Both the position numbers and the translations under genes were made by a program. From Patescibacteria group bacterium (GTDB lineage Bacteria; Patescibacteriota; Patescibacteriia; UBA9629), in the NCBI GenBank assembly GCA_038078695.1, contig JBBTVS010000012.1, positions 1-47,482 on the forward strand: a DNA stretch of 47,482 bases, in the 5' to 3' direction. Below the pieces are notes generated by a model. It ran no database searches, was not told where the DNA came from, and saw only the letters and a program-made list of their open reading frames with translations. The first letter of the stretch is position 1. Each line of letters begins with the position of its first letter. Shown in pieces: positions 13,240 to 23,726 of this stretch.

Positions 13240-14631
13240 TTAGAACAGCCCTTGAGACTTCAGGCTATTCCATAGGTTTTCAAACGGATCCCGCAGATGC
13301 GGAAACCGTTTGATTTTATTTTCACAGTGTCGACGGTAGACGTCGCTGGAAAAAAATTGATTGGACAACTCTGCGCGAATCTGCTTATACTCCTCTGGAG
13401 TAAAGTTTGCATTTGGCAGAATGGGCGCCTCGGTTGTCCATCTAGAAAAGCCCTCGGTCAAAAACCGTCTTTTCCATTGGTGCCAAAGCACTGTACCCGG
13501 AAAAGGGATGGCAAAAGTTATTTTAAGATCATCAATGCAGTCCTCTTCCACCAACTCGCGAAGCATGGCTTGGATTTCTGCAATGTCTCCTTTTGTTTCC
13601 CAAGGACTAAGCATTATATATATGCGATTCATAACACCCAAGCCGTCGCACAGCTCAAGCGTCTGCTTAATCGTCGCCCAATCTCCTGTTTTTCCTAAAC
13701 GCCTCCGCATGGAAACAGTCGTTTCCAACCCCCATCCTCCTCTACTCCAACCGGCTGAAACCATCGCCGGATAAATACTCAAATCTTTGATAACAGGAGA
13801 AACAAGGGCAAACCACCTGATGTCTAACTTCTGCTTTTTTATCTCCTCGCACAAAGCGATGACTCTTGATGCGTTGAGATTAAAAGTTAGATCCGTAAAA
13901 GTAAAATGATGTATATCAAATTTTTTTTGAATATACGCCATTTCTTGAACAACTTTTTCCGGTGAACGGTATCTGACTATTTTGCCGCTCATCAAAGTGG
14001 CGTTGCAGAAATTACATCCGAACGGACAGCCACGGCTGTAATAAATTTGAGCGGAATTCGGTTGTACTTCTCCACCAGAACCATACTCGCCCGGGTTAGT
14101 TTTGCTAATTGCTAAAATCTCGGCGTTTCTTACCGGCCAAGGCAAGCTGTCCAAATCCTGAATGAATGGTTGAGGTTCGGCTATAAAAACTTTGTTCTCT
14201 TTTTTATAAGCCACTCCTCGCAACGATTTTAGCTCTCGCTTTCCTTCCAAATATTCCACCAGCTCAACTATGGTTCTTTCTCCTTCGCCAATAACTGCAA
14301 AGTCAATATTTGGATCTAAAGTTATTTTAGGATAACCAGAAGGATGAGGGCCGCCAACCACGACAGTTATTCCCGCATTTATCGCCTTAATTTGCTGAGC
14401 CAATCGCCTTGCCAGCGAATCTTGAAATGTCATCACTGAAAAACCAATTAAGTCAGGCCTCTCTGCTTTAATTTGAGCAAGGTCAAAATAATTTTGCAAA
14501 ATGACCTCATGCCCGGCTCCCTGCAACACTGCTCCCAAACATCCAATGCCTAAATGCTCAGTATACTCAACCGAATGCATCACCGCATCGCCTGCTGTGT
14601 GCTGGATCAAGCCAGCTAAAACGATCTTCAT
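13240..14631 (-). CDS. B12-binding-domain radical SAM protein (class B rSAM), function unknown
   Basis: N-terminal cobalamin-binding-like domain (PDLIGFSVMT, VVVGGPHPS) and rSAM cluster motif YYSRGCPFGCNFCNA. Start set to ATG 14631 (MKIVLAGL); the ORF-track start at 14649 is TTG. Confidence 0.8.
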   Translation of the reverse strand: MKIVLAGLIQHTAGDAVMHSVEYTEHLGIGCLGAVLQGAGHEVILQNYFDLAQIKAERPDLIGFSVMTFQDSLARRLAQQIKAINAGITVVVGGPHPSGYPKITLDPNIDFAVIGEGERTIVELVEYLEGKRELKSLRGVAYKKENKVFIAEPQPFIQDLDSLPWPVRNAEILAISKTNPGEYGSGGEVQPNSAQIYYSRGCPFGCNFCNATLMSGKIVRYRSPEKVVQEMAYIQKKFDIHHFTFTDLTFNLNASRVIALCEEIKKQKLDIRWFALVSPVIKDLSIYPAMVSAGWSRGGWGLETTVSMRRRLGKTGDWATIKQTLELCDGLGVMNRIYIMLSPWETKGDIAEIQAMLRELVEEDCIDDLKITFAIPFPGTVLWHQWKRRFLTEGFSRWTTEAPILPNANFTPEEYKQIRAELSNQFFSSDVYRRHCENKIKRFPHLRDPFENLWNSLKSQGLF

Positions 14632-14656
14632 TCCAAACACCTCTTCCAAAAATTTT

Positions 14657-14695: not shown

Positions 14696-15319
14696 CTACT
14701 TAAAACTAACTTTCAACTCCAACCACCCAACTTTAGCATACGGCCTCTCGGTTTCACAACCGAAGTAGCCATCAAAGCTACAATTAGATGGCAGTTTTTG
14801 CGACCAGCCGAACCCGAGTGACCTCGACCACTCTTCGTCGCGAGATTGCCACTCTGTTTGGAACCGAATTTGCCAGCTATCTGAAAGCTGATAGCCGACA
14901 AAGTCCCTGCCCCAATACCATGTGCTACTCTCGCGACGAGGATCGACTTCGGCAACTGACCTAATATAAAAACTATACTGCTTAATAGTCAAGACAATAA
15001 AACTATCAATCTCGACAGTTTTTACTGGCCATTGAGTTTTGGATTTGGATACATCTAACATTAGTGCTAAATATCCAAAAGCCTTCAGACTAATTGGGCC
15101 GATTTTTGTCGCGAATGAAGGGCCAATCCCCGGCATAAGCCATGGTTTCGTCCCTGGCCGGTAAAGAACTTCTGAACTCCAATATCGCCAGTTGTGAAAC
15201 CAATAGTAAGTCGCATCTTGGCCGATTGCCTGCTTCACTTTAAAAACTTCTGTTCCAAAAGCAAAATTCGGGAACAAGAAAATAATTAAAGTTAAGCCGG
15301 CAAAAAACATCCTTCTCAT
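14696..15319 (-). CDS. Hypothetical secreted Trp/aromatic-rich, beta-strand-rich protein
   Basis: Signal peptide MRRMFFAGLTLIIFLFPNFAFG, 12 Trp in 207 aa, alternating hydrophobic patterns, C-terminal GWLELKVSFK. Strong SD (GGAGG, plus-strand cctcc 15329-15333) 9 nt upstream of the ATG. Confidence 0.55.
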   Translation of the reverse strand: MRRMFFAGLTLIIFLFPNFAFGTEVFKVKQAIGQDATYYWFHNWRYWSSEVLYRPGTKPWLMPGIGPSFATKIGPISLKAFGYLALMLDVSKSKTQWPVKTVEIDSFIVLTIKQYSFYIRSVAEVDPRRESSTWYWGRDFVGYQLSDSWQIRFQTEWQSRDEEWSRSLGFGWSQKLPSNCSFDGYFGCETERPYAKVGWLELKVSFK

Positions 15320-17381: not shown

Positions 17382-17411
17382 TATAGATTCCTGCTTTCGC
17401 AGGAATGACAT
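17382..17411 (+). repeat. Hairpin repeat family, copy A (tatagATTCCTGC-tttc-GCAGGAATgacat)
   Basis: 8-bp stem 17387-17394/17399-17406. The identical 31-mer recurs at 21624-21654. Fills the glyA to mgtE-N spacer. Confidence 0.85.
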
Positions 17412-17414
17412 AAT

Positions 17415-18629
17415 ATGCCTTATCTAAGTCAGTTATTAAACAATAAAATCAAAGACAGCGGAGAAGAAGTCGCCGGAAGATTAGCAGATATTTTAATTGC
17501 GCCGCAACTTGGCATTTATGCGCCCATTAAATTTTTGATGATTAAACAGCGCAGCCAGAAAAAAGACATTCTTATTCCTTATGAATATGTAGAAACTTTA
17601 GGACAAAAAACAGTTACTTTAAAGACATTAACGGCAAGCATTCCGACGCAGGATGCGGCAGCTTCTGATCTTATTTATCTGCGCCGTCAAGTAATGGATC
17701 AACAGCTTGTGGATATTTCAGGAGCGCGAGTAGTGCGGGTAAATGATGTGCGATTGGGAATGTTTGAAGGTCAAATGAGTATTTTAGGCATTGATGTAAG
17801 CCTAAAAGGCTTGCTCCGCCGTTTAGGCTTTGAATGGCTGGATTTTGGCAATGTATGGAAAACCAATCTGATAGATTGGCGCGAAACCCAGCCTGTCAAA
17901 GGATTTCTGCGGCTTAATATTATCTCCAAAGACTTAAAGAAACTCCATCCGGCGGATTTGGCTAATATTGTTGAGGATTTGAGTTTAAAGCAAGGAAGCC
18001 GTTTGGTAAATTTTTTAGATGCAAAACAAGCGGCTCAAGTTTTAGAAGAGATTAATCCAGATCTTCAAAAAATTTTAATTAAAAATTTAGGACCAAAGCG
18101 GGTAAATAAAGTTTTAGCCCAGATGTCGCCAGACGAGATGACCGATCTGTTAAAAAGCCTGCCGCGCAAGGAAGCAGAGCTTTTTTTGCAAAAAATTAAA
18201 GATGTTAGTGCTCAAAAGGTAGATAAACTAATTAAATACCCGGACAATACTGCCGGCGGATTGATGACATTGGATTTTATGAGCGCACGACCCAATTGGA
18301 CAGTAGCCAAGACTATTCTAGAAATTAAAAAAACTTCGCCTTCGCTGCATTATCTTCTATATGTTTATGTTACTGATAATAATGGTTATTTTTACGGAGC
18401 AATCTCTCTTCGCTGGCTCTTAATCAGCCCTTCGGAGATAAAAATAAAAAAGCTTTTAAAAAAATACCCAACTTATTCTCTCTTGCGGCCGAATCAGCGA
18501 ATTCCAGAGATTGTTAATATGATGACTAAATATAATCTATTTACCGCCGCCGTGGTAGATAAAAAAAACAAACTTTTAGGCATGGTAGGAGTGGATGACG
18601 TAATGAGGTGCCTTGCGCCAAACGCTTAA
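17415..18629 (+). CDS. Soluble MgtE-N-domain + CBS-pair protein with N-terminal PRC-barrel-like region (no TM domain)
   Basis: LHPADLANIVEDLSLKQGSRLVNFLDAKQAAQVLEEINPD...MSPDEMTDLL (MgtE intracellular N domain), then GGLMTLDFMS ... TAAVVDKKNKLLGMVGVDDVM (CBS pair). No hydrophobic segments. Confidence 0.7.
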   Translation: MPYLSQLLNNKIKDSGEEVAGRLADILIAPQLGIYAPIKFLMIKQRSQKKDILIPYEYVETLGQKTVTLKTLTASIPTQDAAASDLIYLRRQVMDQQLVDISGARVVRVNDVRLGMFEGQMSILGIDVSLKGLLRRLGFEWLDFGNVWKTNLIDWRETQPVKGFLRLNIISKDLKKLHPADLANIVEDLSLKQGSRLVNFLDAKQAAQVLEEINPDLQKILIKNLGPKRVNKVLAQMSPDEMTDLLKSLPRKEAELFLQKIKDVSAQKVDKLIKYPDNTAGGLMTLDFMSARPNWTVAKTILEIKKTSPSLHYLLYVYVTDNNGYFYGAISLRWLLISPSEIKIKKLLKKYPTYSLLRPNQRIPEIVNMMTKYNLFTAAVVDKKNKLLGMVGVDDVMRCLAPNA

Positions 18630-18631
18630 AA

Positions 18632-19894
18632 ATGAAATTAAAAATGCCGCCAAAATTAAATCATCTGTGGTTGAGTTTCTTATTCTTTTTTAGCGTAGTC
18701 GGACCCGGGATTATCTCCGCCAATGCGGATAACGATGCGGGCGGCATCACCACTTATTCTATTATAGGCGCGCATTACGGCACAAAACTGCTGTGGGTTT
18801 TATTGTTAATTACTATATCTTTAGCTATTACACAGGAGATGGGAGTAAGAATGGGTTTGGTTACGCATCAAGGTTTGGGAGGAATTATCAGAGGGAATTT
18901 TGGCGTCCGCTGGACCATGTTGGCGATGATTGGGATGTTAGCGGCTAATATAGGGACTATCGCCGCCGAGTTTGCCGGAGTGGCCGCAGCTTTGGGCATT
19001 GGAGGATTAAGTAAATATTATACGATTCCTTTAACAGTTCTATTGGTATGGCTGATTCTTTATAAAGGATCGTTTAAAATCACGCAGAAAATTTTTTTGA
19101 TTTTCTCAACATTTTATATCGTTTATATCATTAACGGATTCTTAGTAGGTCCAGACTTTAATCAGGCTTTTAAAGATATGCTAACCCCGACGATTGAGGG
19201 AAATATGCCTTTTATGCTGGCAATGATTGCCTTAATCGGGACAACTATTACTCCATGGGGGCAGTTTTTTATCCAATCTTATGTCGTGGATAAGGGTTTG
19301 GACATTAAACATTATAAAGTGGGGAAAATAGAGGTTTATTTAGGAGCCTTTATTACAAACATCGTCAGCTTTTTTATCATCATCTCAACCGCCGCCACTC
19401 TTTATAAACACGGCATTCCTATTATTGACGCCGGCGACGCGGCACGAGCGTTAGAACCGTTAGCAGGCCAGTTAGCTCAAGGCTTATTCGCTTTCGGCTT
19501 ATTTGCCGCCTCAATGTTAGGAGCTTTTATCTTACCGACGGCTACGGCTTACGCTATTTGCGAGGCATTTGGCTGGGAGGCTGGTTTTAACACTAATTGG
19601 AAAGAAGCGCCTTTCTTTTACTCCATTATTTTACTCTGTTTAATTATTCCAGCCTTGATTGTCTTACTCCCCAAAATTTCTTTAGTTAAAATAATGATTT
19701 GGTCCCAAGACATCAACGGCATTCTTTTGCCTTTGATTTTAATTTTTGTAATGAAATTAATTAATGATAAACGGGTAATGGGGGAATACACTAATAAACT
19801 CTGGGGAAATGTTATTGCATGGGCGACGATTGGCGGGATTATCGCTGCTACTTTAGCTTTGGTTGTTTTTTCTGTATTGGGTTATAATTCATAA
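18632..19894 (+). CDS. NRAMP/SLC11-family transporter with non-canonical metal-site motifs
   Basis: About 11 TM segments. The TM1 region VVGPGIISANADNDAGGITTYS aligns to MntH GPAF..IDPGN, and the TM6 region LIGTTITPWGQFFIQSYV aligns to GATVMPHNLYLHS. Start set to ATG 18632, 3 nt after the upstream stop; the ORF-track start at 18608 is GTG. Confidence 0.75.
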   Translation: MKLKMPPKLNHLWLSFLFFFSVVGPGIISANADNDAGGITTYSIIGAHYGTKLLWVLLLITISLAITQEMGVRMGLVTHQGLGGIIRGNFGVRWTMLAMIGMLAANIGTIAAEFAGVAAALGIGGLSKYYTIPLTVLLVWLILYKGSFKITQKIFLIFSTFYIVYIINGFLVGPDFNQAFKDMLTPTIEGNMPFMLAMIALIGTTITPWGQFFIQSYVVDKGLDIKHYKVGKIEVYLGAFITNIVSFFIIISTAATLYKHGIPIIDAGDAARALEPLAGQLAQGLFAFGLFAASMLGAFILPTATAYAICEAFGWEAGFNTNWKEAPFFYSIILLCLIIPALIVLLPKISLVKIMIWSQDINGILLPLILIFVMKLINDKRVMGEYTNKLWGNVIAWATIGGIIAATLALVVFSVLGYNS

Positions 19895-19916: not shown

Positions 19917-19947
19917 ATGTCATTCCCGCGCAGGCGGGAATCTATAT
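19917..19947 (-). repeat. Hairpin repeat family, copy B (stem variant ATTCCCGC/GCGGGAAT)
   Basis: atgtcattcccgcgcaggcgggaatctatat is the reverse complement of the atatagATTCCCGC-ctgc-GCGGGAATgacat form. Overlaps the last 8 codons and the stop of trmD. Confidence 0.85.
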
Positions 19948-23562: not shown

Positions 23563-23639
23563 TGGTGGGCGCTCGGGGACTCGAACCTCGGACCTTCTCG
23601 GTGTAAGCGAGACGCTCTAACCAACTGAGCTAAGCGCCC
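23563..23639 (-). tRNA. tRNA-Val (anticodon TAC)
   Basis: Minus-strand sequence GGGCGCTTAGCTCAGTTGGTTAGAGCGTCTCGCTTACACCGAGAAGGTCCGAGGTTCGAGTCCCCGAGCGCCCACCA. Anticodon loop CTTACAC, T-loop GGTTCGAGTCC, encoded CCA. Confidence 0.9.
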
Positions 23640-23640
23640 G

Positions 23641-23726
23641 TGGTGCCCTCGGCGGGACTTGAACCCGCATGCCAAAAATGGCCAGGAGCCTCAGTCCTGC
23701 GCGTATACCGATTCCGCCACGAGGGC
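23641..23726 (-). tRNA. tRNA-Leu (anticodon GAG), long variable arm
   Basis: Minus-strand sequence GCCCTCGTGGCGGAATCGGTATACGCGCAGGACTGAGGCTCCTGGCCATTTTTGGCATGCGGGTTCAAGTCCCGCCGAGGGCACCA. Anticodon loop CTGAGGC, encoded CCA, 1 nt from tRNA-Val. Confidence 0.9.

Follow-up and report, generated by a model that had tools for sequence, protein, structure and literature searches.

Contig JBBTVS010000012.1 of a Patescibacteria metagenome-assembled genome (MAG; assembly GCA_038078695.1) belonging to the candidate phyla radiation (CPR) was analysed over its whole length of 47,482 bp, referred to here as the window, and carries two adjacent open reading frames (ORFs) on its forward strand. ORF A (17415..18629) encodes a soluble protein related to the cytosolic part of the Mg2+ channel MgtE, hereafter called the partner, and ORF B (18632..19894) encodes a transporter of the NRMT (NRAMP-related Mg2+ transporter) clade within the SLC11/NRAMP family. 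Both ORFs had been placed at these positions in an earlier note made from the sequence alone and were confirmed there, and the identity of the two genes is secure.

The pairing, which the earlier note regarded as uncharacterised, has been in the literature since 2014, and the window locus is a CPR member of this known nrmT operon type. NrmT was discovered via M-box riboswitches, and a gene for a homologue of the MgtE N-terminal cytoplasmic domain adjoins most genes of the NrmT group (Shin et al., 2014, PLoS Genet, PMC4072509). As in the nrmT operons of C. acetobutylicum (Ca_c0685/Ca_c3329) and A. capsulatum (Acp2976-Acp2977), the MgtE-like gene of the window lies immediately upstream of a transporter gene with an altered metal-site signature. 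The locus differs from the published operons in its host, a CPR MAG, and in having no M-box, an element that precedes many, not all, operons of this type. A literature search found no later paper on the partner, and none naming both NrmT and Patescibacteria. New here are statistics of the synteny in both directions across bacteria and archaea, the recognition of a tandem PRC barrel in the partner, the tracing of the partner to MgtE channels of the PRC type, for which intermediate forms exist, and an account of which MgtE ligand sites the partner has kept and which it has lost.

Domain architecture of the two proteins

Pfam recognises in ORF A an MgtE_N domain (PF03448) at residues 177-278 (E=8e-24) and CBS at residues 357-400 (E=2e-10), and the NCBIfam mgtE model TIGR00400 matches the protein only over model positions 23-251 of 450, which correspond to the cytosolic part of the channel. 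The MgtE transmembrane (TM) domain PF01769 was not matched in ORF A, and the protein ends at the boundary of CBS2, with no plug helix. The highest Kyte-Doolittle mean over 19 residues is 1.39; since no stretch of this length reaches 1.6, ORF A has no TM segment. Taken together, the missing PF01769 domain, the partial TIGR00400 match, the lack of a hydrophobic segment and the end of the protein at CBS2 mean that ORF A is not an MgtE channel, and the earlier description of it as the cytosolic part alone is thereby confirmed. A sequence search against the PDB matched it to the cytosolic domain of Thermus thermophilus MgtE (TtMgtE) with E=9e-32. The AlphaFold2 (AF2) model, which was built from a 55-sequence alignment and has a predicted local distance difference test score (pLDDT) of 81, contains two beta-barrels (residues 1-75 and 89-168), followed by the helical MgtE_N domain and the pair of CBS domains, and its Foldseek matches in the PDB are MgtE cytosolic domains (E~1e-15).

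The N-terminal region had previously been read as about 130 residues resembling a PRC barrel. The fold was borne out by AF2 and Foldseek, but the extent was not: the region spans about 170 residues and, according to the models, is a tandem PRC barrel. Modelled alone, residues 1-170 reach a pLDDT of 89.6 and a predicted template-modelling score (pTM) of 0.84, and their best Foldseek matches, over the full length, are the PRC-barrel proteins CdpB1/CdpB2 (8qzo; E~2e-6, TM-score 0.6-0.7), followed by weaker ones to MTH1859, the H subunits of photosynthetic reaction centres and RimM. CdpB1 and CdpB2 are archaeal PRC-barrel proteins of cell division. Profile searches, which supported the expected MgtE_N, CBS and Nramp domains, left the Pfam PRC family (PF05239) below threshold in ORF A (12.3 bits against a cut-off of 21.2; weak match at residues 3-72, E=0.18). 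Two homologues exceed this cut-off, P0010 with 31.8 bits and P0017 with 27.3 bits, and many members of the partner family carry a precomputed PF05239 assignment. Across phyla, the second barrel is the best-conserved segment of ORF A, exceeding both MgtE_N and CBS, with 17 of its 80 columns conserved at >=90% and with D95, Q97, D100, R108, D111, R135, R136 and W155 invariant (alignment A2). The tandem PRC N-terminus is not mentioned by Shin et al. (2014), in whose text the term 'PRC barrel' has no occurrence (PMC4072509), and no PDB structure was found that combines PRC, MgtE_N and CBS (2026 chain sequences; Foldseek entries to April 2026).

ORF B matches Pfam Nramp (PF01566) over 356 of 357 model positions (E=1.8e-88) and so has the SLC11/Nramp fold; its hydropathy profile contains multiple hydrophobic segments. 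Its best sequence match in the PDB is EleNRMT of Eggerthella lenta (7qia; E=1.8e-108, residues 13-417, 44% identity over 401 aligned positions), compared with about 1e-13 for MntH structures, 2e-9 for human NRAMP2 and 7e-8 for the plant Al3+ transporter NRAT; the NCBIfam MntH model scores 108 bits against a cut-off of 430. In the published signature of NRMTs, helix 1 carries DxxG and helix 6 carries TxxA/T, as opposed to DxxN and AxxM (Ramanadane et al., 2022, PMC8806188). ORF B, with DAGG and TTITPW, fits this signature exactly. The deviating motifs that the earlier note had pointed out in TM1 and TM6 are thus genuine, and its distinction between the NRMT clade and MntH is upheld by the far stronger match to EleNRMT. 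The likeness that it saw to NRAT in the replacement of Met by Thr is not: NRAT has the form DxxN-AxxT, whereas the DxxG-TxxT of the window is an ordinary NRMT variant, and the comparison is unneeded because TTITPW occurs in 38 of 152 NRMT ORFs (TTIAPW in 86).

Residues D35, G38, T204 and Q359 of ORF B correspond to D55, G58, T224 and Q379 of EleNRMT, all of which were tested by mutagenesis (PMC8806188) and all of which are conserved; E113 (EleNRMT E133) is conserved as well, and T204 is invariant. Both histidine positions of the proton pathway in TM6b are replaced, by W209 and I214 in ORF B and by W and N in EleNRMT. ORF B thus resembles EleNRMT (PDB 7qia/7qic/7qji/7qjj) in its binding-site and mutagenesis-tested residues and in the replaced proton-pathway histidines, and differs from it in having T207 in place of A227, that is, TxxT instead of TxxA in TM6, both of which lie within the published A/T signature. 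EleNRMT has been characterised and its structure solved; it is an uncoupled transporter of Mg2+ and Mn2+, not Ca2+ (Ramanadane et al., 2022, PMC8806188). By every sequence criterion ORF B is a member of the NRMT clade, and Mg2+ transport is predicted for it.

Linkage of partner and transporter and the origin of the partner

The TAA stop codon of ORF A ends at 18629 and the ATG of ORF B begins at 18632, leaving a spacer of 2 nt, not the 3 nt counted before; the junction is consistent with translational coupling of the two genes. An alternative start of ORF B, GTG, lies at 18608, but the ATG is supported by a database protein that is 100% identical to the product and has 420 residues.

To place this arrangement in a wider context, an NRMT alignment was scanned against one genome per GTDB species, which yielded at least 555 relatives, and hidden Markov models (HMMs) of three parts of ORF A were searched in the best 80 loci. 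A converse search, with the partner as query, retrieved 80 metagenome loci. Each set was limited to the 80 loci closest to its query, and more distant NRMT branches are therefore under-sampled. The NRMT loci span many bacterial phyla as well as Methanosarcinales, Methanocellaceae, Methanobacteriaceae and Nanoarchaeota, and the partner adjoins NRMT in 75 of the 80: upstream on the same strand in 74 and downstream in one, with three of the 75 loci cut by contig ends. The remaining five have no partner within 5 kb. Conversely, NRMT follows immediately downstream in 70 of the 80 partner loci; another seven end before an NRMT could be seen, which leaves 73 informative ones. The linkage is therefore near-obligate in both directions (~95%) in bacteria and archaea, and the co-occurrence beyond this genome on which the earlier proposal depended is real. 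Neither the 160 loci nor the 150 top-ranking representatives of the N-terminal domain contained a gene fusion of partner and NRMT; proteins of ~600 aa that were considered as such fusions proved to be fusions to the MgtE pore.

Three partner loci are without NRMT (L132, L145 and L139, the last with only 669 nt of flank). At L132:1722-4257 the partner gene comes after a gene for a major facilitator superfamily (MFS) transporter, and at L145:1608-4175 it is followed by a gene for a histidine kinase of the HWE type.

The fusions to the MgtE pore indicate where the partner came from. A search with residues 1-170 of ORF A against 1.84 billion representative proteins returned 1140 clusters at E<=1e-3, most of which have ~400-430 aa and the same soluble architecture. 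A separate class of ~593-604 aa (P0263, P0337, P0341, P0385) combines PRC, MgtE_N and CBS with the MgtE TM domain PF01769. Residues 1-404 of ORF A align with the first ~405 residues of these PRC-MgtE channels at 25-33% identity (E=4e-50 to 4e-71), so that the channels are as close to ORF A as are the soluble partners of other phyla. The two kinds of protein are collinear, with PRC, MgtE_N and CBS in the same order, and ORF A stops exactly where the channels enter an acidic plug helix (EEAxED) and then the pore, which the channels alone possess. In a crude neighbour-joining (NJ) tree, which carries no support values, partner and PRC-MgtE sequences appear to form one family. From these alignments the soluble partner can be described as the complete sensor half of an MgtE of the PRC type, cut before the plug helix and the pore. 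The sensor module thus occurs in two settings: within one polypeptide together with an MgtE pore, and as a protein of its own whose link to NRMT is genetic. A literature search found no paper linking PRC barrels with MgtE.

The soluble partners outside the CPR usually have a short tail beyond CBS2, a few residues long (alignment A2, after the column of window residue 404), with Lys/Arg where MgtE has the acidic Mg2/Mg3 residues of the plug; the CPR proteins end in Pro-x-Ala.

Full-length PRC-MgtE genes do not adjoin NRMT in any of the four that were looked up (loci L161-L166); one of the genes checked adjoins kdp genes and one TrkA genes. Directly upstream of NRMT, two loci encode membrane-anchored intermediate forms of the partner (L057:3003-4907 and L137:2929-4797), which consist of PRC, MgtE_N, CBS, a plug-like acidic helix and ~5 hydrophobic segments forming a degenerate MgtE TM domain, still detectably MgtE-like in L137 (E=4e-9). 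L057 stems from Coriobacteriales, in the class that includes Eggerthella.

Such forms could be taken to mean that the partner is left over from an mgtE gene once located beside nrmT, or that its regulatory target is not the adjacent carrier, reached for instance via protein contacts of the PRC barrels as in RimM or CdpB. Full-length PRC-MgtE channels exist, forms with a degenerate TM domain adjoin NRMT in L057 and L137, and rare partner genes adjoin a gene for an MFS transporter or a histidine kinase. A remnant, however, would not stay intact, at 50-57% identity across CPR classes, nor would it be expected to keep its place beside NRMT in bacteria and archaea together with the acidic residues of the sensor. 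We therefore give this explanation little credence.

Metal sites of the partner and regulation of the carrier

The cytosolic region of MgtE is a Mg2+-dependent gate, in which the sites Mg4 and Mg6 link the N domain to the CBS domains and from which the plug helix passes the signal to the pore; mutants of Mg4 and Mg6 fail to close at high Mg2+ (PMC5882242). The Mg2+ sites of TtMgtE given there were mapped on a multi-phylum alignment of 39 partner sequences (25 from CPR, 14 others). The Mg4 pair D91/D247 corresponds to D240/D395 of ORF A, with D or E in 37 and 38 of the 39 sequences, respectively, and the Mg6 residue D95 to D244, a position held by D in 38 of 39. Because the residues of Mg4 and Mg6, which in MgtE bridge the two domains, are kept, a Mg2+-dependent closure of the N domain of the partner onto its CBS pair is plausible.

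The function that we favour over the alternatives, with moderate confidence, is that the partner would serve as a trans-acting, Mg2+-responsive regulator of the carrier, probably as an inhibitor at high Mg2+. This proposal follows from the homology of the module to the MgtE gate, the conservation of the sensor residues and the near-obligate synteny. By homology to EleNRMT, the NRMT would be a carrier without proton coupling that takes up Mg2+ (and Mn2+) via an enlarged binding site. Rising cytosolic Mg2+ might then bridge the MgtE_N and CBS domains of the partner via D240, D244 and D395, and the compacted partner might restrain the carrier. The outcome would be post-translational feedback on an otherwise uncontrolled uptake of Mg2+. 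The physical contact between partner and NRMT, the direction of the regulation and Mg2+ as the sensed ligand are what we infer here.

Several findings weigh against this proposal. Two further metal sites of MgtE have been lost from the window protein: Mg7 (TtMgtE E59) is represented by Q208, a position held by Q/K/R/H in all 25 CPR members and by D/E in 12 of the 14 others, and Mg5 (D226/D250) by N374/R398, with Arg at the latter position in 23 of 25 CPR members and D250 kept in 8 of the 14 others. The plug helix, which bears Mg2 and Mg3 in MgtE, is missing from the partner altogether. The PRC barrels, which were considered as a dedicated module for docking to NRMT, are weakened in this role, since MgtE channels that stand alone have them too. 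Nor is the ATP site kept. In MgtE, F227 stacks on ATP and its mutation abolishes ATP binding (PMC5529423); in ORF A this residue is L375, a Leu that is invariant in the family, and N203 and D188 are replaced by K349 and W334, although Y170 and R187 are retained as Y316 and R333. MgtE-like nucleotide sensing by the partner, as suggested in the earlier note, was rejected for these replacements and is doubtful. In sum of its parts, the CPR partner shares with Thermus thermophilus MgtE (2yvx, 2zy9) the MgtE_N domain, the CBS pair and the acidic residues of Mg4 and Mg6; it has none of the plug helix, TM pore, Mg2/3/5/7 sites and ATP-stacking Phe of MgtE, and it has the tandem PRC barrel at its N-terminus in addition.

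The published work on relatives adds to these objections. A B. subtilis strain deficient in Mg2+ transport is complemented by NrmT of C. acetobutylicum with no partner present, and in the only published test of a pair, Acp2976/2977 of A. capsulatum expressed in B. subtilis, co-expression gave no further rescue (PMC4072509); the latter result is compatible with the partner being an inhibitor and lends this no positive support. Transport and structural work on EleNRMT likewise mentions no partner protein in the available excerpts (PMC8806188). Since C. acetobutylicum NrmT works alone and these excerpts name no partner, the partner seems not to be needed for transport. This bears most directly on the idea of an obligate two-subunit transporter, in which the carrier would need the soluble protein for transport and which the two-component label of the earlier note implied. 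The near-universal two-way synteny and the 2-nt junction would agree with it, but the complementation by NrmT alone, the EleNRMT work as far as available and the five of 80 NRMT loci that have no partner within 5 kb all speak against it, and with relatives for which it is largely refuted we regard it as hardly tenable.

The remaining objection concerns the metal. The A. capsulatum protein of the NrmT group behaved mainly as a Mn2+ transporter, which rescued a Mn2+ defect fully and a Mg2+ defect only at millimolar Mg2+ (PMC4072509), and for this reason Mg2+ cannot be taken for granted as ligand or substrate in all lineages. The system might accordingly serve mainly as an importer of Mn2+, or of a broader range of divalent metals, in the lineage of the window, with a partner that senses Mn2+ or another signal. 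This would be in keeping with the A. capsulatum protein, which has an adjacent partner and no riboswitch, with the transport of both Mn2+ and Mg2+ by EleNRMT (PMC8806188), and with the absence of an M-box from the window. Against it stands T204, which is invariant: in EleNRMT, the corresponding mutation T224A leaves Mg2+ transport no longer detectable and affects Mn2+ transport only moderately (PMC8806188). The conserved acidic pairs of the partner, moreover, are Mg2+ sites in MgtE, and relatives equally distant from ORF B are under the control of Mg2+ riboswitches. We therefore consider a system devoted mainly to Mn2+ unlikely.

The riboswitch evidence comes from Firmicutes. M-boxes (RF00380, 93-138 bits) were found at seven Firmicutes loci, whose NRMTs are 47-52% identical to ORF B; five of the loci have the M-box ahead of the partner-NRMT operon and two ahead of a partner-less NRMT. 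By preceding these related loci, the M-boxes support the relevance of Mg2+ for the NRMT clade. In the window no M-box was detected at the gathering threshold, and no Rfam family was matched near the operon, the only matches in the window being two tRNAs. Given this absence, no feedback specific to Mg2+ other than the partner would be recognisable at the locus. In the two Firmicutes loci with a partner-less NRMT (L017:4588-4754 and L021:4542-4708, Peptococcaceae-type), which are two of the five NRMT loci lacking a partner, the M-box is directly upstream of NRMT and there is no partner within 5 kb. This arrangement fits riboswitch and partner as alternative or additive controls.

Shin et al. speculated about feedback regulation or a chaperone activity for the partner (PMC4072509). 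The second of these suggestions corresponds to a cytosolic metal acceptor, chaperone or buffer at the exit of the transporter that would have no part in gating. Several acidic residues of the partner are conserved, including a charged cluster in the second PRC barrel, and tight operon linkage would be equally compatible with such a role. Free Mg2+ is millimolar, however, and is not known to require chaperones. The homologous module of MgtE, furthermore, is a regulator and not an ion carrier (PMC5882242), so that an acceptor role seems to us very unlikely.

For the proposed regulator, parallels exist among other transporters. GlnK-AmtB and KtrA-KtrB are systems in which a cytosolic protein that senses a small molecule or an ion is encoded in an operon with the transporter and regulates it by direct binding. 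The likeness to partner and NRMT is one of analogy only, with no homology, and the direct binding is a feature of GlnK-AmtB and KtrA-KtrB. More tentatively than the regulatory role itself, we propose that the partner could represent a detachable Mg2+-gating module, which was split from the MgtE pore and reused in trans on the unrelated SLC11 carrier. If this is true, no soluble regulatory subunit would have been known in the NRAMP family before it. The uptake of Mg2+ by a carrier without proton coupling must be restrained, and the regulatory role, if true, would provide a recognisable feedback on Mg2+ uptake in genome-reduced CPR bacteria that have no riboswitch at the locus. The synteny and the intact sensor half of a PRC-type MgtE make the hypothesis of a regulatory subunit concrete, down to the residues D240, D244 and D395. 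Since the pair is very highly conserved, with NRMT 70-76% identical across CPR classes, the sequences suggest that it may be a core ion-homeostasis system in CPR bacteria.

Features and neighbourhood of the locus

The positions of the features described above are collected in Table 1. The two genes lie among housekeeping genes, with glyA and a gene for an HD hydrolase preceding them in the same orientation and the convergent genes trmD, khpA, transketolase and rplS downstream. The order glyA-partner-NRMT is also present in the nearest relatives, and the closest relatives of ORF A are annotated as Jacksonbacteria (85% identity), Gracilibacteria and Magasanikbacteria. Scans for promoters and terminators around the operon gave match counts not above those of shuffled sequence, and for this reason no operon boundaries are claimed from them.

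Table 1. Features of the partner-NRMT locus in window coordinates, with the evidence for each.
Feature	Position	Strand	Evidence
Soluble partner gene (ORF A), 404 aa	17415..18629	+	ORF; Pfam/NCBIfam; AF2; Foldseek; hydropathy; 100% identical to P0001 (404 aa)
First PRC-barrel-like beta-barrel, aa 1-80 (predicted)	17415..17654	+	AF2 strands at residues 11-69; weak Pfam PRC; Foldseek
Second beta-barrel, aa 89-168 (predicted)	17679..17918	+	AF2; Foldseek; alignment A2
MgtE_N helical domain, aa 177-278, with D240 and D244	17943..18248	+	PF03448; TtMgtE alignment
CBS pair, aa 286-404, with D395	18270..18626	+	Pfam CBS; AF2 secondary structure; site mapping
Gene junction TAA-AA-ATG, 2-nt spacer	18627..18634	+	Sequence
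NRMT-clade SLC11/NRAMP gene (ORF B), 420 aa	18632..19894	+	Pfam Nramp; match to EleNRMT 7qia; 100% identical to P0121 (420 aa)
TM1 metal-site motif DAGG (DxxG form)	18734..18745	+	Invariant column, alignment A1
TM6 metal-site motif TTITPW (TxxT; proton-pathway His replaced by Trp)	19241..19258	+	Sequence; motif counts
Terminator-like hairpin past the NRMT stop, within the 3' end of convergent trmD (tentative)	19922..19941	+	Consensus scan match

The spacer between glyA and ORF A measures 33 nt in the window, as opposed to 9 nt in the nearest relatives. It contains a perfect 8-bp hairpin at 17387-17406 (ATTCCTGC-TTTC-GCAGGAAT; dG -11.8 kcal/mol, z -2.45), with an AGGA within the 3' arm, 10 nt ahead of the ATG of the partner gene. 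As a candidate regulatory element this hairpin was rejected: it is not conserved, the 85%-identical relatives (L167-L169) having the 9-nt spacer.

Further features of the window lie on the reverse strand. A gene at 13240-14649 (-) encodes a B12-binding radical SAM protein (PF02310 + PF04055), and an ORF of 207 aa at 14696-15319 (-), which has no Pfam match at E<=1e-4, begins with a signal-peptide-like N-terminus (MRRMFFAGLTLIIFLFPNFAFG). The two tRNA genes are adjacent to each other at 23566-23726 (-), between the transketolase gene and rplS.

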